Notes: generated by a model from the sequence alone, not told the origin. 56,762 bases of DNA, filler included, from Dugesia japonica (GCA_001938525.1; 6 parts of 6 records of this genome joined end to end with filler, not necessarily neighbours in it); one strand, 5' to 3'. Counted from the whole stretch's first letter, positions 10,059 through 19,785 are shown. Program-made: numbers and translations.

Positions 10059-10700
10059 TGTAAAAGAATATGTGATTAATAAAAGCGAGATCAGTGAATT
10101 CGAAAAGAAATTTTAAATCATCAAATCCTAAAAACCCAACATTTGTATTTTTCCATTTCCAATGCTTTTTTACATCCCAATATTTAAAGAATATTATTGT
10201 ATGTTTTCCACTTTTGTCAACAAATTGAGATGTTTTACCGATAGGAAACTTCATTTTGGCTGTTACATCTTGCGACACTTTACCTTTGTAATTAGTATTA
10301 ACTAACATTTTTTAATGATTTTTAATAAATGAGAGTGTATATATATACATATTTTTCAGAAATAAAATTAATTGATTCATTTAAACAAAAAAAAAGTATT
10401 ATAAACAATGCATTAAATTAAATCTATATAAGATGGAGTTGAGAAATGATGATGAGTTTATCAAATTGTTGGTCCAAGCGGTAGCGGAAAAAAACATTGT
10501 TTGTATGTAAGTTACTAAGATCACATTTATTTAAATAAAAATTAAACAAAATATATTGGCACATAGGTGCAGATAAAGAGCATGGGGTGACACAATCTAA
10601 ACTTTGCAACATGAATATGAGATTTATAAATGGATTTGATAAAAATTGAAGCAAGANNNNNNNNNNNNNNNNNNNNNNNNNNNNNNNNNNNNNNNNNNNN

Positions 10701-10712: not shown

Positions 10713-10783
10713 NNNNNNNNNNNNNNNNNNNNNNNNNNNNNNNNNNNNNNNNNNNNATTGGACCACCCACCCCCCAGGCCACA

Positions 10784-10976
10784 AAAAATATGAAATGTAG
10801 ATGGTAATTTGTGAGATGTCCAAAACCGCACATTTACGCTATAAACTGTAATAAAAAAGATGAAATATCAGAGTTTTAGAAAATCTGTAAAAATCGTAAA
10901 AATATGAAATGTAAGCTGTAATTTGTGAGATGTCCAAAACCGCACATTTACGCTATAAACTGTAATAAAAAAGATG
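10784..10976. repeat. Two 79-bp direct repeats (10784-10862, 10898-10976) in the Polinton subterminal region
   Basis: AAAAATATGAAATGTA....GTAATTTGTGAGATGTCCAAAACCGCACATTTACGCTATAAACTGTAATAAAAAAGATG occurs twice, period 114. Confidence 0.9.
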
Positions 10977-11073
10977 TTTAGTTGTAGTTGGGTAAATTTG
11001 TAAAAATAGTATATACAAAATAAAGTATGTACTAGGGGTTAAAATATATATACGATTTTGCTTGGAATATTAT

Positions 11074-11150
11074 AGTTTTAAGTTTTAAGTTTTAAGTTTT
11101 AAGTTTTAAGTTTTAAGTTTTAAGTTTTAAGTTTTAAGTTTTAAGTTTTA
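11074..11150. repeat. Perfect heptamer tandem repeat (AGTTTTA)11
   Basis: Read directly; lies a few bases past the inferred true pPolB stop. Confidence 0.95.
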
Positions 11151-11153
11151 AAT

Positions 11154-14100
11154 TTATAAATATCCAAATGGTAGTGTAGTTATTCCATCATCTAGAATAT
11201 ATCTTTTATCATCAAATGAAGTTATTGCTTTCTTTACTTGGATAGTTTGTTTAACTTGATGTAAACTAGAACTGATGGAATAATAATTACTTTTATTATT
11301 GAATTGTTATATAATACATTTTTATATTGTTGTGCTGTAAAGTTGTTAGTATTACTTACTCCTTTATGTTTCTTTAAATCTTTCTTTTCTTTCACTAGAT
11401 AGTAAGATTTAGCTTTAATGAAGAATGCTTCTTTAATTATTTCATCAGGATATTCATCCTTCATTTGAAATAAATTATTACCAAATAAATCTTTAATTTT
11501 CGTATTTGTTGAAAATTCTTTCCAAGATTCATTAGGATGAATAAATTCAATCATTAAAGAATCTGTATCACTATAATGTATTTTCCATTGTTCTGAAATT
11601 TGATTAGGAATTAATACATTTAGTTGATTATATACAAAATCATAAATGATTAATTTTGCATAATCTAGTACAAAGAATACTATATATTGAAATTTATTGT
11701 ACATGATTAAGTGTTTAAATGTTTTTATTAATGCAACCTCTTCATTAATTATAGTAGATGATTTATATCCTGGTTTAGATACTTGATTTAATAATTCTTT
11801 TTTAGTCTTTGACAAGAATAGATTAATCCTATTTCTTACATTTTCCAAAGTCTTGCCAAAGAATGCATTATTTATTAGTTTGAAAAATAAATTACCAAAG
11901 TCATCATTATTAGCCTTTGCTTCATCTCTCGAACTAATATTTGAAAGTATATAATCTCTGAGCCAATATTTAGTAGGAATGTTTATTTTACTATGAACTT
12001 TTGATAAAATCATTCCCTGATCAAGATATAAATCTAAAACTTGACCCATTACTACATATTTATATTTATTTTTCTGGTTCATTATTAACTTTTCATAATT
12101 AGATTGTTTCTGATTAGATTGTTTTAATAAATCTTTCTGATAATCACTTAAATCATCATAACTAATCGATTGTTTATCAACTGCATATGGATAATATTTA
12201 CTTTTTTCTTTAATACTTTCTGGATAAATTAAATCAACTGTATAAATATAATCCATATAAATNNNNNNNNNNNNNNNNNNNNNNNNNNNNNNNNNNNNNN
12301 NNNNNNNNNNNNNNNNNNNNNNATCCCAACTCATTTCACCCCAAGGTAATCGTTTTGTCATTGATGCAGCATATAAACTATTCTCATCTAGACATTTTAA
12401 TGTATGAAATTCATCAGCTATTACATGCCGATTACCACATACTCCTGAAAATCCTCCTCTAATTCCTTGTTCTATAGTTAGAAACATATCAAAATTTAAG
12501 TTATTGGCATTTAATAATTCAACTTTTGATACTTTCATACCAATTTCCCAAGTTAATCCTGGTGCACTATAACAATATGTTTGATCAATTTCATTCCTTT
12601 CTAATGATAATTTCCTAAAGTTTTCGAAAAAGTCTGCTAGAATTAATACATCAAGTTTCATATAATGTAAAGTATAATCCATTAAATTATTAAAATTTGA
12701 ATATTCTTTTAGAAATATCTGATAATCAGATTCTGATAACTTAGTTTGTCGTAATACATTGAAAAAATCATCAATATGTGGATAGTAGTTTATTAATTTC
12801 TTTTTAACTTCTGTATAATCTTTACCATTTACATAATCATATGGATAGATTCCTTTACATGGTTTAAGATTAAAACTAGTTAAATTAGGATAGTTTTTAC
12901 TTTTTAATAAATCCTGACCCATCTTTTCTACAGAATGACCACTACACATTCTTAAAGAATCAAGAAATCTTAATCTTTCTATTGAAAATGAAATGTAAAC
13001 ATCATCATTTAATGGAATTAAATTACAAATTTTATTAGGATGAGATTTACATAATTTTTTAAAAACAAAATGATTATCAAATTTAGAAGCATTATGTGCA
13101 TAAATTGGTATAAAATGTTTCTTTAGAGATTCAAATTTCTTGATACAATTATAATGTGCATGTCCTCTAGAAGCTCCTGTCCAAGGATTTATTGATAAAT
13201 AATAACAAGATGGTTTATTTAAATCACAATAATAACAATTTGAATGTTTTGCTAGATCAACTTCCCGATCATCAAGTGGTATAGAAGTATAACTTTGATT
13301 AATTAATTGTTCAAATATATCATTAAATTTTAATAACCAATCAATGAATTTTGAAATACAATCTAATCCTGTGAAATATTGATAAATATTTACAACTTTT
13401 GGATGATGGCTTACTAAATATAAACCTAAAGCAAATGGAATTAATTCTGATTCATTATCTAAACTAGTATCTTTAAAAGTTTCAATATCAAAGTAAATGG
13501 TAAATGGATTCTCATTCTTCATATAAAACTTATTAAACTTGTATGAATTATTAAAAGAGAATTTAATATCTGCAGATTTCTGTTTTAAACAAATCAATTG
13601 GTGATTAATTAAACTTTCTTTATTTCGTTTCCAGTTCATACAATTAATACACAATTCATTAGAGTGATTAGATTTAATATTTAATTTATTAAGATTCCTA
13701 ATTAAAATATAATGTCCATTTTGAGAATGGTTATTCCAAAATAACAAATTACATTTATTAACAAGATGTGATGGATTAGTTTCAAAATGAGAACAATAGA
13801 GTTTTTGTATTCTAGGTTTATCTTTAGTGGATGGAATAACTTCAAATATATTAACTTTAAAATTATTTAATCTTTCAAATTTAGATTTGTTTTTTATATC
13901 CATTGGCATATTTATTCCTGTCCAATCTAAACCATCAATGATATTTTGATAATTAAAAACTGAATCTCCTAATTTAGTATTAAGATGTGCCATTATACAA
14001 TATTTAAAACAATTGAAATCATTCTCTGGATTCTTAATATTTAAAATTCCTGAAATATTATTCCATTCTTTAGGTAATGGTTTATAACCTTGTCCAACTA

Positions 14101-14887
14101 AAGATTCATAATTTGATAATTCAATTGTAAAAGAATTAAACTTTTCAAAGGACCAACCCGATCCTTGTCCTTCAGTTGTGAAAATATCTTCAGATAACTG
14201 ATCCAACATTTTATCAATCGCATCATTAATTTGACTAGGCATTGTTATTTTAACCGAATGAGCGTCATAATCTTTTATCCATTTTTGATTAGTTGTACTA
14301 TCTGAACCAACAAAGTCCTTTGTATAAGTAGTAGAACAAGTTATTGAAACTGCTACTTTTTGAAACTTGTTAATGAATAGATTAGTTATTTCTTTCAATT
14401 CTAAAGAATAATCTTTCAAGAGATTAAAATTAATTCTGTGATTGAATTGATAAATGTTTTCATTATCTGGTTGACTTTCATTTCTATAAACACTAAAGTA
14501 TTTTTTTAACTTAATCATGGATTGTTGGCATGTTTCAATTTCATATTCTTTATTTAAACTATAATCTTTAAATATTTCTCTAAGATTTTGAGATGTTTCC
14601 GATTCAGATAACTGAGAATCTGAAGAACTATCTTTATCAGATTCCCAGCTAGCTGGGGCTTCCAATGCTGCTACTTTCTCTATATGCCTACGACCATTCA
14701 AATGTCTGTTAAAATTTATCAAGTTATCAAAGTCCATATTACAAATATGACATCTTCTCCATGAGTTTCCAGCGTTAAATAATTCTAATTTTCGTAAATG
14801 AGGTCTTCCTTTTAGATGAGTTTCCAAGTGATAAAGAGATCTAAAAAACTGATTACATAATTCACAATATTTATCAAGAGTTGCCAT
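11154..14887 (-). CDS. polB: Protein-primed family B DNA polymerase (pPolB) with two N-terminal zinc fingers; one frameshift near 11285
   Basis: ExoI IYFDIET, ExoII YAHNASKFD, KGIYPYDY, ExoIII YMKLDV, motif A DENSLY, motif B KLINNAFFGK, motif C YSDTDS, KHKGV. The typical C-terminus KAITSFDDKRYILDDGITTLPFGYL* continues in another frame to a stop at 11154-11156. Confidence 0.95.
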
Positions 14888-14930
14888 TTTTAAGCAAAGT
14901 GGTTTGGTCTGACCTGTCGTGGTATTATTT

Positions 14931-15670
14931 TTATTTTTTATTTTTTATGTTTACTTTTGACTGACCACTGGCCAATTGGTTAGACAACTGATTCATCAAT
15001 AATGGAAATGATTTACTAAATTCTTCAAGCTGATTAGCCAATTGATTTACAGTTTGATCATGAGAGTTTTCAGTTGTTTGAACATTAAAATGTTCTAATT
15101 TGGCTTTAACACTATTAATTATATCTTTACTAGTTTTAATTTCTTCATTAGTTAATTCATCATCTTCCAAAGCTTTTATATGAAAGAAGAATAATTTTTA
15201 TTTTTAGTTTCTTCTAATAGTTTAACTTTGGAAGTATATTTATTTATTCTATTTTTTATTAAACTAATTCTTAAAGATCCATGAGCTATAGAATAAATAA
15301 TAGGTATACCAGTAATTATTCCAGTTAGTATTAATTGAATTGTAAAAGATAAAGTTGACATTAATATTATAGTTCCTGAAGCTATACCTACTACAGTTGA
15401 AATTCCTACATCTGTAAATCTAACTCCTGTATCAAATCTTGACCATCTTTTTAATAATTTATTATAATGTTTCAATTTATCATTTACCCATTCTAGATCA
15501 CCTTCAAAATCTTTTATCCTAGTTTTATTTAATTTAATTTTTAATGCTTGAATTGTAGACTTTGTAGACTTTGTAGACTTTTCTTCACCTTCATATACTT
15601 GATGATTTAAATCACTTAAATCAGGATATAGTTTTTCTCCAATTAATTGGTCATCCATTTTTTTATTCAC
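14931..15670 (-). CDS. Polinton membrane protein with LYPDL motif and two hydrophobic helices (two ORFs joined by one frameshift near 15197)
   Basis: LYPDL near the N-terminus, a coiled coil, hydrophobic segments VGISTVVGIASGTIILM and LILTGIITGIPIIYSIA. Removing one A in the run near 15197 gives NKLFFFHIKALEDDELTNEEI, fusing 15176-15670 with 14931-15170. Confidence 0.7.
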
Positions 15671-16034
15671 TTGTTTGAATCCAACCCATCCAGTCTTTAA
15701 GTGTTAAGATTAAAGAATTAAAATAAGTATCACTACTAATCGTTATTGAAAATTTAAGCCATTTTGATTTTCCTTTATCTATTTGTTTAGTATGTATTTT
15801 AAAAAAAATTGTTGAATAATTATTTAATTCTCTTTTAAATTTATAGTTTTTAAAAACTACTGGATTAGATTCATTTTTTATTAAAATTTCATTAGTTGTA
15901 CAAATGGTTTGACCTGGATAATCATTTTTTTTATTACCAAATATGAAAATGAAATATAATTCATCTACTTCTTTTAATAATTCAAAATTTAATATCATAT
16001 CTTCATCTAGTAGATAATAATTTTTTTTTATCAT
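15663..16034 (-). CDS. Polinton hypothetical protein (123 aa)
   Basis: Open ORF overlapping both neighbours in the compact viral gene array; no recognised motif. Confidence 0.55.
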   Translation of the reverse strand: MIKKNYYLLDEDMILNFELLKEVDELYFIFIFGNKKNDYPGQTICTTNEILIKNESNPVVFKNYKFKRELNNYSTIFFKIHTKQIDKGKSKWLKFSITISSDTYFNSLILTLKDWMGWIQTSE

Positions 16035-16866
16035 AATTAATAATTAATCCACTTCTTCGTCCATTTAATTTTTTTAAGTTAGATTTTAGAACAGTTGGTA
16101 AATAGTCAGTGATCTTTTCCATTGTTAAGTAAAATAAGTCAATTTTATTTGTTTCTCCTTCCTCTGTAGGTGGTAAATATGGAAAATAATTTTCTAAACC
16201 ATCTTTCAAGTCTTTGAGTAAATTTGGTGAATAAAGTTTCTTTAGTCTTCTTTCTTGGGTTAACTTTATTATAATCTTCTTTAGGTATTCTTTATCATCT
16301 TTATGCAAGTGTTTTAATGAATAAAATGTTTTTTCCAATCTAGCTAAAGGATCATTTTTAGTTTGAAGATGTAGATCAAAATCATATTTTAATTTATCAA
16401 CTTGTTTTTTCAAGTTGTTACATTTTTCTTCACTACATTTACTTGTTAAATCTTTAATCTGTTTACTTAAATCTTTAACCTTTTTATCAAAGTCATTTTT
16501 ATAAAAATTTTTAATCTGTTTAAGATTTTCAACTTGAATCAACATTTCAGTTTTTAGATTTATAAATTCTTTTTTCCTATCACTTAGATTTAATTTATTA
16601 CTTTCTACTAATGTATCAATTGTTACTTGTTGTTTAGTTATAAGTTGTCTAAATTGTTGGATTTCTTTTCCAACTACTTGGTTAATCATTTTATCAACAT
16701 AATTTCTATCATCATATTTTTTATTTTTAACTTCTTCTTCTCTTTCATGAATTCTTAATTTTGTATTAATTTTACTATCAACTTTTTCATCAAAGTTTTC
16801 AATTATTTGATTTTCCAAAGTCTCTCCAAATCTGTTCATTATAACATTTGAAAAACTATGACTCAT
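16003..16866 (-). CDS. Polinton coiled-coil hypothetical protein (287 aa)
   Basis: Long K/D/L-rich heptad region within the viral gene array. Confidence 0.75.
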   Translation of the reverse strand: MSHSFSNVIMNRFGETLENQIIENFDEKVDSKINTKLRIHEREEEVKNKKYDDRNYVDKMINQVVGKEIQQFRQLITKQQVTIDTLVESNKLNLSDRKKEFINLKTEMLIQVENLKQIKNFYKNDFDKKVKDLSKQIKDLTSKCSEEKCNNLKKQVDKLKYDFDLHLQTKNDPLARLEKTFYSLKHLHKDDKEYLKKIIIKLTQERRLKKLYSPNLLKDLKDGLENYFPYLPPTEEGETNKIDLFYLTMEKITDYLPTVLKSNLKKLNGRRSGLIINYDKKKLLSTR

Positions 16867-16886
16867 TTCTTATATCCATAACTTTG

Positions 16887-17384
16887 TTATAACCAATCTT
16901 TAAAGACATCTTTTAGTTCTTTAATAATTAAATCAAAAGGAATTCCGATTTGAATCTTGTAAATAAAATAAATACATAATATTCCACAAATCTTTGTTTT
17001 CCAAGGTTGAACCTGTAATTTATTACATTTTAAATTTCCTATTCCTTTTAAATCAGCTAAAAGAGGTAATCCATAAGAATCAAAATAATAACTTTTACCT
17101 CTTGCTTTAGTTTTTGGATTACTAGGTAATTGAATAAAAGCAACCCAGTGACTTCCTTTTTGATTTGAATTTTGATAGTTTATTATCCAATTAGTTTGAT
17201 ATTTAACTGATGAACTAATAAATGTTTTAATTTCATCTTTCATTACTATATAAACTTGACTATCTTCATCAATATTTAAAAATTTAACAATATCAATTAA
17301 ATCATAATTTGTTGTAGATGATGTACCAAAAGTTTTAAGAAAATCTAATATAGTCCAAGTTCTTCCAGTTAACTGGGGATCCAT
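16887..17384 (-). CDS. Adenain-like (C5) cysteine maturation protease
   Basis: GSHWVA (catalytic His), YFDSYG (Asp), oxyanion Q, and ICGILC (Cys). Confidence 0.92.
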   Translation of the reverse strand: MDPQLTGRTWTILDFLKTFGTSSTTNYDLIDIVKFLNIDEDSQVYIVMKDEIKTFISSSVKYQTNWIINYQNSNQKGSHWVAFIQLPSNPKTKARGKSYYFDSYGLPLLADLKGIGNLKCNKLQVQPWKTKICGILCIYFIYKIQIGIPFDLIIKELKDVFKDWL

Positions 17385-17430
17385 TTCTTTTCCAAGTTTC
17401 TTGGATAGATTGTTTCAACTAACTTTCCAA

Positions 17431-18168
17431 CTAGTTGACCTGGCGTAAGTGTAATAAAATATTAATCTTTTCACCATCAAAGTCTATAGTATTAAAATTT
17501 TCATCTACTATATTTAATTTTATTCTAGATATAAAATTTGTATTAATTTTTGAATAAATTGGATTAGCTGGCCTATCAGTTATCCTATATCCATAATGAA
17601 CTGTACCCATTGGTAAACTATGCAATAAATTGTATTCTCTATTATTTAAATAATTACCTTGAACTATATTACAAATAATGTTAATTGTATTTATATCAAT
17701 AATATTAATTTTATTATCAGAAATTAAAGTTTTAGTAGTAGTTAAACCATATTTCATTGGTTTAAATCCTAGAATGGTATGAAAAAAAGAAGTATCATCA
17801 AATGATAATTCTTGTGAAGTAAATTGAGTTTCTCCAGGTTTTATTTCTTCCTTTAAACTCCCAGTTAACTGGATTAATGCTTTTCCTGTTGATATATCAA
17901 ATGTTAATAATATTCTTTCTTCCTTTAATTTTTCAGCAATTTGTTTTATTTCATAAGCACCAGGAGTTAGTTTTTTCCAGTTAACTGGTTCATTATCTCC
18001 AGGTTGCTGGATCTTGTATTTATTATTTTTATCATTTATATTTAAAATCATGTTTGATGTAGTAAACCAAATTAAACCTATTTCCCATAAGCCATCTAAT
18101 TTTAAACCATTTGATAAATTAGTTTCTAATTCATGTTCTTGACCAAATAATAAAAATTGATGAGACAT
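17431..18168 (-). CDS. Minor capsid protein (penton, single jelly-roll)
   Basis: LKLDGLWEIGL N-terminus; INIICNIVQGNY, PANPIY, IKLNIVDENFNTIDFDGEKINILLHLR C-terminus typical of Polinton pentons. Confidence 0.85.
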   Translation of the reverse strand: MSHQFLLFGQEHELETNLSNGLKLDGLWEIGLIWFTTSNMILNINDKNNKYKIQQPGDNEPVNWKKLTPGAYEIKQIAEKLKEERILLTFDISTGKALIQLTGSLKEEIKPGETQFTSQELSFDDTSFFHTILGFKPMKYGLTTTKTLISDNKINIIDINTINIICNIVQGNYLNNREYNLLHSLPMGTVHYGYRITDRPANPIYSKINTNFISRIKLNIVDENFNTIDFDGEKINILLHLRQVN

Positions 18169-18186
18169 TATCGAACAAGCTATTTA

Positions 18187-19097
18187 TTATAGATTATATT
18201 TAAGCTTTAGTCTATTATATTTTTCTTTTGTTATTAATTTATTTTTTAATAGTTTATTAATTATTTTTAAAAAGTCTCCAGAAAGATTATCATGACCAGC
18301 TTTTATTGCTGAAGTAATTACAACAAACTTTTCCAACAACTTTAATGGGTTAGTCGATAAACCATCACCTTCTTCTTCTTCCCAGTTAACTGGCCAGTTA
18401 ACTGTCCAACTAGTTGGAATACCTTGTCCAAAATGTCTTGTAGAATCAATTTCTTTATAAACTGGAGGCTTTTTAACTTTTTAAATTCTTCATCAAATAT
18501 TCCACCTTTTTTACATGTTCTTATATATTTACTTTCATGAGGGATAGAAAAATTAAATAAAGATAAATAATTACTTTTTGCTTCAGTATTATCAGATCCA
18601 TAACCAAACAATAATTTTAATAATTCAATATCAAATGGTATTTCTTTTACCTTTCCATTACTATTACTATTACTTAATTTGAAATATCTTTCAATTCCAT
18701 TAATAGTATATCTTTGTTTTAAAAAAGAAGTTTCAGAACCAATCATAAAAGAATCAAATTTATCATCTTTATCTAGAAGAATGTGAGGAAATAAACTAGG
18801 AGGTAAATCATATTTTTTACAAACTTTTAAACTATCTTTTTTAATTAATAATCTATCATCTTTTTCATTTAACTCAAAAACTTCATCTTCTTTTTCAGTT
18901 AATTGAACAAGTGGTTTGATATCAACTGTTTGGATAGTTGGCAAATCAACTGTTTGGATAGTTGGCAGCTCACTGGAAAACAGATTATTAAATGATGAAT
19001 TACCTTTTAATTGATTACCTATTAATTTATCATATTTTCCTCTTCCAACAATTTGATCTTTTAAACTTTTAATTCTATCATCAATCCAATTACTCAT
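18187..19097 (-). CDS. Conserved Polinton virion/core-type protein; frameshift near 18380
   Basis: The 251-aa ORF continues in another frame as EEEEGDGLSTNPLKLLEKFVVITSAIKAGHDNLSGDFLKIINKLLKNKLI, matching the GxG..P..L......AG[NH].....I...L C-terminal motif I recall from Polinton ORFs. Stop at 18187-18189. Internal LPTIQTVD duplication. Confidence 0.65.
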
Positions 19098-19102
19098 TTT
19101 AT

Positions 19103-19636
19103 TTAAGCTTTATTTGAGTTGTAAGGATTAAGATATAATCCCTTTCCAGTTGGAATAATTTCTATTCCATTTTTAAATTTCTTTTTCTTTATTACTTTTA
19201 TTTCATTTCCTAATTGATTTTTCAGGTATTTATGAGTTGCAGATCCTTGATAAGGATTTAAATAAATACCACTTCCAGTTCCAGTTAACTGGGGCAACTG
19301 GCGCAACTGTTTTAATTGTTCATCTAATATTTCAGACTCTTTTGCTTTATTATTAGCTTCTCTTGAATTAGAAACTACTTTTGCAATACCAGCCGCTGCA
19401 CCTGCAGCGGTTCCAGCTGCACCTATTCCCGCTAAAATACCTGGTATTAATGCTAATAAGGGAAAAACTCCACCTTCTGTCGTTTTAACTCCACCTTCTG
19501 TCGTTTTAACCCCACCTTCGGAGATTTTCTGTCTTATTATTTCTTTACTCTTTTTTCCTATCCAATAGTTTTTAATTGATTTACTTTTATCACTATTTAT
19601 TAATTCTATTAATTCATTATCAGTCATTGAAGTCAT
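19103..19636 (-). CDS. Core/membrane-active precursor protein with GG protease sites (adenovirus pX/pVI-like, adintovirus cupiennin-like)
   Basis: EGG|V three times, then FPLLALIPGILAGIGAAGTAAGAAAGIAKVV amphipathic segment; two G.G[IL]YLNPY motifs. Confidence 0.8.
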   Translation of the reverse strand: MTSMTDNELIELINSDKSKSIKNYWIGKKSKEIIRQKISEGGVKTTEGGVKTTEGGVFPLLALIPGILAGIGAAGTAAGAAAGIAKVVSNSREANNKAKESEILDEQLKQLRQLPQLTGTGSGIYLNPYQGSATHKYLKNQLGNEIKVIKKKKFKNGIEIIPTGKGLYLNPYNSNKA

Positions 19637-19704
19637 TTAAACTATTTTATATATAACATCTTTTAGTTCAGTTGTTAAAATTTAACATTTTTAAAATAGT
19701 GAAT

Positions 19705-19785
19705 CTACCAACATTTCTTTTTCCTTGTCTAGATAAAAATAATTATATTTTGTTTTCCAATGATGATTAGTTTCAAAATCATATT
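19705..19785 (-). CDS. 3' end of an upstream Polinton ORF, possibly the packaging ATPase
   Basis: YDFETNHHWKTKYNYFYLDKEKKCW* resembles the W...Y.F..ID tail of Polinton ATPases; cut by the contig end. Confidence 0.3.

Follow-up and report, generated by a model that had tools for sequence, protein, structure and literature searches.

A 12-bp palindrome recurring in frame within the genes of a Maverick/Polinton-like element of Dugesia japonica

Palindromic repeats that lie in frame in several unrelated genes and are translated as loops are described for the Rickettsia palindromic elements (RPEs; PMC10969869), and GC-richer palindromes in AT-rich DNA, with presence and absence of units and variation that preserves structure, for the GC clusters of yeast mitochondria (GC42; PMC4478555). 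Perfect inverted repeats with compensatory changes in the absence of selection are also expected from two processes: template switching, as in quasi-palindrome correction, perfects near-perfect inverted repeats (PMC5453318), and snap-back end joining (SD-MMEJ) builds inverted repeats from local sequence (PMC5728401). Mavericks/Polintons and adintoviruses encode a protein-primed family B DNA polymerase (pPolB), protease, penton, and pX-like protein in a tight intronless array (PMC8097293 and PMC8502044); the word stem “palindrom” is absent from the main texts of both papers. The locus described here, a 12-bp palindrome (hereafter dyad; main spelling CCAGTTAACTGG) in a planarian virus-like element, resembles each of the first four systems in the features named, and its carrier resembles the last. 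Among the titles listed, literature on CCAGTTAACTGG, Myb with CAGTTAACTG, CCGTTAACGG, and Polinton palindromes yielded no description of the motif.

The window, that is, the whole stretch of 56,762 nucleotides analyzed here (GCA_001938525.1), consists of contigs joined through spacers at 10657, 19786, 28400, 38153, and 47047. All dyad matches are confined to one contig, which carries part of an element of the Maverick/Polinton-like family inside an animal genome (Table 1). CpG dinucleotides are approximately five-fold scarcer in the element (11234–19700; 3.7/kb) than in the other contigs (18.3/kb), part of the pX-like gene excepted, and a different contig of the window holds an animal-type pyruvate kinase exon (41871–42437). 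The predicted gene set of pPolB, a weakly matched protease, penton, and a pX-like protein fits both Mavericks and adintoviruses, while genes for integrase, packaging ATPase, and major capsid protein are not on the contig, which ends at 19785 and holds an incomplete element. Mavericks/Polintons have terminal inverted repeats with AG ends and a 6-bp target duplication; here, one candidate end starting with AG was found and the second end lies off the contig; 5′-AG end motifs are described for Mavericks and adintoviruses (PMC8097293). The (AGTTTTA)×11.7 tandem array occupies 11074–11155, between the candidate end and the pPolB stop, and two 79-bp direct repeats, 95% alike, lie just outside the candidate end at 10783–10976. 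Thousands of contigs from each of four runs align to this stretch, mostly less than 95% alike, indicating that the carrier family has many diverged copies; a Maverick expansion has been reported in planarians (bioRxiv 10.64898/2025.12.11.693146). RNA was represented by 19 reads from one run, all less than 90% alike and partly aligned, which say nothing on expression either way.

Table 1. Features of the carrier contig, in window coordinates
Feature	Position	Strand	Remarks
Contig with part of a Maverick/Polinton-like element	10757–19785		Element exceeds the right contig end; placed by spacers and CpG
Candidate left terminus (AG start at 10980), then (AGTTTTA)×11.7 array	10980–11155	+	Putative terminus
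pPolB with two N-terminal C2H2 fingers	11234–14887	−	Includes a masked stretch; zf-met E 5.6e-10; atlas feature matches 0.94–0.95 to PF03175 clusters
Imperfect relatives of the dyad (two), TCAGATAACTGA	14190–14615 (14190, 14604)		2 versus 0.27 expected, 81/3000 replicates
Dyad variant CCAGCTAGCTGG	14645–14656		PASW in pPolB; bridged by a zero-difference contig (X1 record 3)
160-aa ORF, function unknown	15176–15658	−	Dyad variant CCAATTAATTGG at 15639 (QLIG), directly past the start codon
123-aa and 287-aa ORFs, function unknown	15663–16866	−	Asymmetric CCAA-N4-TTGG at 16670
Putative adenain-like protease	16887–17384	−	Weak Pfam Peptidase_C5 match, E 0.016, below cut-off; exact dyad at 17365 near start
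Exact dyad 1	17365–17376		QLTG; missing from an X2 sister contig
Dyad with core CAACTAGTTG	17427–17438		Central TAG is the penton stop; sole use of the third frame
Penton (minor capsid protein), 245 aa	17431–18168	−	Top PDB match of the model, mavirus penton 6g41, E 1.1e-8
Exact dyad 2	17861–17872		QLTG; borders a penton loop block that exceeds a sister contig's by 36 nt
Exact dyad 3	17977–17988		PVNW; variable penton loop; asymmetric CCAG-N4-CTGG close by at 17999
Gene with a break near 18470, treated as two pieces	18187–19097	−	Imperfect dyad at 18895; 24-bp tandem at 18921–18967
3 × 12-bp array: exact dyad 4, one-mismatch copy, CCAACTAGTTGG	18382–18417		PTSW-TVNW-PVNW; block 51 nt longer than in two sisters
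pX/protein-VI-like virion protein, 177 aa	19103–19636	−	Adeno_PX on 20% of one cluster
Exact dyad 5	19281–19292		QLTG; variable linker; extra half-sites flank

Gene assignments draw on profiles, structural models, and atlas features. The pPolB assignment comes from the atlas, hmmscan giving no Pfam PolB match; the penton model has a pLDDT of 82.9; and searching the protease by sequence against the PDB returned chance globin matches and no meaningful match. PHROGs gave nothing useful, a word-based homolog search with the penton found no match, the same type of search with pPolB residues 60 to 420, which covered longer proteins only, found none and is uninformative, and scans of viral contigs recovered no locus related to the carrier. 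No nuclease gene was found on the contig (10757–19785), the element being incomplete. Two matrin/jaz-type C2H2 fingers at the start of pPolB (14800–14870 and 14680–14760) are possible nucleic acid binders, and the region upstream of pPolB (14960–15075) combines low sister depth with two CCAAT-box-like sites and several CARYTG hexamers. Three genes hold in-frame tandem duplications (9, 24, and 21 bp at 15553–15581, 18921–18967, and 19466–19528, respectively), which show that this carrier copy gains loop sequence by slippage as well.

The five exact copies of CCAGTTAACTGG that a sequence-only reading had placed in four genes were all recovered (17365, 17861, 17977, 18382, and 19281), as were its variants CCAGTTAACTGT (18394), CCAACTAGTTGG (18406), CAACTAGTTG (17428), CCAATTAATTGG (15639), and TCAGATAACTGA (14190 and 14604); a further variant, CCAGCTAGCTGG in pPolB at 14645, had been overlooked. 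Its expectation that chance alone would fail was borne out, with eight matches within two mismatches against 0.85 expected (0 of 100 shuffles). Members of the family CCA-RY-TA-RY-TGG number eight in the element contig and zero in the 45.9 kb of the window's other contigs; all eight are perfect palindromes, a symmetry likewise overlooked before, and the four symmetric spellings are all present with no mixed spelling. Among eleven ten-base cores in the contig, ten are symmetric and one is mixed. The pattern CCAR-N-YTGG is enriched at a 4-nt spacer only: ten copies lie in the element and none outside it, and asymmetric spacers occur in two of the ten. Symmetry is not absolute, as asymmetric relatives exist at 18895, 16670, and 17999.

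To separate DNA-level from protein-level constraint, 3000 replicates were drawn that left the proteins unchanged and took new codons according to codon usage in the element itself. Exact copies number 5 as compared to 0.10 expected and family members 8 as compared to 0.87, values reached in 0 of 3000 replicates each, and rare codons follow the symmetry of the dyad. Together with the use of two frames, this result supports the constraint at the DNA level proposed earlier. The accompanying tally of four QLTG and one PVNW was wrong: the coding frame at 18382 is PVNW (codon log-odds +29.0 versus −9.8 bits), which gives three QLTG and two PVNW readings among the exact copies. When variants are included, four 12-mers lie in the QLxG frame and five in the PxxW frame, and the third frame, which has a central stop, is used only at the penton stop (17427). 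The homolog alignment that had been suggested as a check showed QLTG/PVNW-type peptides to be absent at these columns in 150 of 150 pentons and 6 of 6 pX-like proteins, and the dyad is hence not a family-wide signal; QLTG was found elsewhere, away from the dyad columns, in one of the 150 penton homologs. Dyad sites fall within or border loops (pLDDT 51–78 in the penton model).

Comparison with sister contigs covered the dyads other than those at 15639 and 19281, and its counts are at least those given here. Sister contigs without the dyad were found at four loci; at the two cleanest, the shortening amounts to 36 and 51 nt. At 17803–17873, a sister contig has 33 letters in place of 69, being 12 codons shorter and without the dyad, and at 18352–18441/2, sisters have 37 letters for 88 and 38 for 89, being 17 codons shorter and likewise without it (both read by eye). 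Within 17977–17992, at least among the contigs listed, one sister omits 9 letters and another omits 3 with the dyad substituted; across 17360–17450, an X2 contig has 29 letters for 89. A joint skipping 14550–14701 is present in four of four runs. The length differences of 36, 51, 51, 9, and 3 nt are in frame, and the differing blocks exceed the 12-mer. Summed depth is 0 to 29 over three dyad-bearing blocks versus thousands alongside (17780–18460); depth is not copy number, and such holes were not taken alone as absence, single contigs joining across being used. Of four mapped dyads, three border a block that sisters replace. The sister contigs being 80 to 90% alike, junctions are blurred, and gain and loss are not polarized by a tree. 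The GC content of the five dyad blocks is 33 to 43%, compared with 25% for the element and 13 to 26% for six other skipped blocks.

The motif may not be strictly private to this copy. Among sister contigs, one picks up again precisely at 17861 and one is altered on one side only at 17987; at 14102, a loose end in the comparison, sister copies show a motif-like unit whose halves are unequal, at a place where the window lacks it. All three argue against a strictly private motif. An assembly artifact is unlikely given that the differences are in frame, that two frames are used, that a contig resumes at 17861, and that a zero-difference contig spans 14645. Among the records listed, none bridges an exact copy with 31 letters on either side, and X1 is possibly the source sample.

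Nothing is shared among the dyad sites beyond the 12 bp. No repeat longer than 16 bp and no long unit bounded by terminal inverted repeats (TIRs) was found among them, ruling out a longer mobile unit; no target duplication was seen at these sites; and flanks agree no more than those of random positions (at most four extra bases), such that donor and acceptor are untraceable. The 12-mer folds weakly (−0.9 to −1.2 kcal/mol), and a stable hairpin was rejected on that ground. Other palindromes with at least four G+C are not enriched (1 versus 2.1 expected), so the preference for the dyad sequence needs a further cause. Neither lone CCARYTA half-sites (9 versus 7.7 expected) nor single TAACTG (5 versus 4.3) are enriched, and single YAACTG is mildly so (15 versus 8.5; 42 of 3000 replicates). 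Local micro-repeats exceed shuffles at three of nine sites (17395, 18395, and 19285). Fixed spacing between sites or from start codons was rejected; distances to start codons vary, although two dyads share the same offset directly past a start codon. An end-to-end junction of element termini, also considered as a source, would fit CAACTAGTTG (two copies) but not the main spelling. No 12-mer dyad occurs in the putative element end or the region upstream of pPolB. A family-wide packaging or late-transcription site, as envisaged by the sequence-only reading, is unsupported in view of these absences, the variable start distances, and the four loci at which sisters lack the dyad.

A metagenome pattern scan for tandem dyads returned 23 loci, none encoding a relative of the carrier's proteins, and a further scan for the tandem pattern gave zero matches. 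At these unrelated loci, 9 of 15 non-identical variants have mixed arms, unlike the carrier. At two of the loci, L010 and L012, TIR elements with 8-bp target duplications carry the identical 12-mer CCAGTTAACTGG in their inner arrays; from their TAGGGATG-type ends and the 8-bp duplication, we take them to be hAT-like. Non-autonomous elements with TAGG(G/T)ATGCACCAGT ends and interiors made of CCAGTT/AACTGG arrays, the exact 12-mer included, are seen at L010:2005–2091 (unit 87 bp), L012:2575–2950, and L008:1–177, the last with one end only. Elsewhere in the set, two longer perfect palindromes, one around CCAATTAATTGG and one around CCAGTTAACTGG, alternate in a repeat of ∼128 bp (L015:100–250 and L021:800–960), and at L022:22–1151, variably spaced CCAGTT..AACTGG dyads make up nested repeats of 18 and ∼186 bp that form long inverted arms. 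The hAT-like arrays thus resemble the carrier in placing an identical 12-mer in a eukaryotic mobile element and differ in being non-coding, variably spaced, and held between TIRs. No hAT ends or TIR words were found within the carrier, and its flanks match those of L010/L012 over at most four bases. In these two elements, the dyad has a precedent as a protein site, although no link to the window was found.

Our preferred reading, held tentatively and at somewhat less than even confidence, is that the dyad, a DNA-level unit found within the variable loops of six genes, spread within one sub-lineage by short template-switch copying, was re-symmetrized by fold-back correction, and was tolerated for leaving the reading frame intact. 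From the observed enrichment, use of both open frames, symmetry in four spellings, presence and absence, loop positions, and unshared flanks, we infer all of the copying steps. Short templated insertions would be copied from one donor dyad while the element replicates itself by strand displacement or while the host joins DNA ends. A transition in one arm would then be copied to the other by a quasi-palindrome template switch, yielding the three other symmetric spellings. Selection on the proteins would let insertions persist only in loops and in one or other of the open frames, with the stop frame retained nowhere but at the penton stop, and at some sites slippage would give rise to the tandem array and additional half-sites. 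Copying does not account for the choice of this 12-mer as donor, and a binding partner may contribute through weak selection. Taken together, copying, correction, and filtering by selection on the proteins best account for the symmetry across four spellings, the length changes that are multiples of three, the use of both open frames, and the restriction to loops. Against copying, the 4-nt spacer of CCAR..YTGG is fixed and looks operator-like, the excess of micro-repeats is limited to three of nine sites, and 18895, 16670, and 17999 are asymmetric.

The strongest rival, which we consider unlikely, is that dyads are lineage-specific sites for a homodimeric DNA-binding protein, either host Myb-type or encoded by a mobile element, gained in permissive loops and kept by selection. 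A unit of exactly 12 bp with unrelated flanks, enrichment at the 4-nt spacer that extends to the two asymmetric-spacer copies, the mild excess of YAACTG, and the same 12-mer inside L010 and L012 speak for such binding. The Myb consensus is YAACKG, and MYBL1 may have a palindromic SELEX motif. The earlier remark that TAACTG lies on both strands holds for the main spelling and not for CCAACTAGTTGG, CCAGCTAGCTGG, and CCAATTAATTGG, so that three spellings miss the consensus. Binding accounts for the sequence choice but explains neither why mixed arms are lacking nor why sisters are without the dyad. A degenerate operator should permit mixed arms, whereas symmetric cores make up 10 of the 11. The dyad is missing from sisters at four loci, has no fixed start distance, is absent from the putative end and the pPolB upstream region, and is unaccompanied by an excess of lone half-sites or TAACTG.

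Both the sequence choice and the symmetry with sister absence would be explained by a minimal selfish element, in which an enzyme reads the hairpin on a displaced strand, nicks or primes, and copies the dyad in frame into virus genes; we regard this as distinctly improbable. An enzyme that reads hairpins would call for variation that is specific in sequence and still symmetric, as seen here, and the position of dyads at block edges, with one sister resuming at 17861, is also in keeping with it. The folding energy of about −1 kcal/mol, the lack of a target duplication or shared flank, and the contig's lack of a nuclease gene in an incomplete element weigh against it. Of the ideas put forward in the sequence-only reading, the tiny propagating palindrome fits the data best, with neither enzyme nor footprint shown. 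Less probable again is that each palindrome is an independent local scar that snap-back repair made out of a half-site present by chance, the sites not being copied from one another. Such joining does build inverted repeats locally (PMC5728401) and could leave the micro-repeat excess at 17395, 18395, and 19285, but arbitrary sequence would be expected, whereas other GC-containing palindromes are not enriched, half-sites are not depleted, and five identical 12-mers go unexplained. Least probable by far is a protein motif, for instance a cleavage site of the adenain type, for which the consensus is L-x-G-x-G. The QLTGTG of the pX-like protein matches that consensus; five of nine 12-mers, however, are in the P-x-x-W frame, rare codons track symmetry, and homologs lack the peptides, such that this reading is already largely refuted. 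Template copying with correction, our preferred reading, and dimer binding make opposite predictions for close copies and for oligonucleotide binding, and a host with very many Maverick copies provides a natural time series in which the spread of such a repeat could be watched.

Set against the described systems, the dyad departs from each in particular ways. RPEs are ∼150-bp bacterial miniature inverted-repeat elements (MITEs) that encode one conserved peptide (PMC10969869), whereas the dyad is 12 bp, is read in two frames, shows no target duplication, and resides in an animal virus-like element. GC42 units are 42 nt, adopt a folded structure, and target AG nucleotides (PMC4478555), in contrast to the short, weakly folding dyad with no target signature. 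Products of template switching and SD-MMEJ are local and arbitrary in sequence (PMC5453318 and PMC5728401), while the dyad is one consensus recurring over 4.6 kb. The dyad thus behaves like RPEs and GC clusters but differs from them in unit length, target site, and hairpin stability, and would for these reasons not be classed as a member of either. If dimer binding were true, a cis-signal would be scattered through the coding sequence of Mavericks, elements whose regulation is little known; if a selfish hairpin were true, sequence-specific self-propagation would require no more than one turn of DNA. If template copying with correction is true, a capsid-coding element has been colonized by a repeat that writes new loops into virion proteins in two frames and that is far shorter than RPEs or GC clusters.
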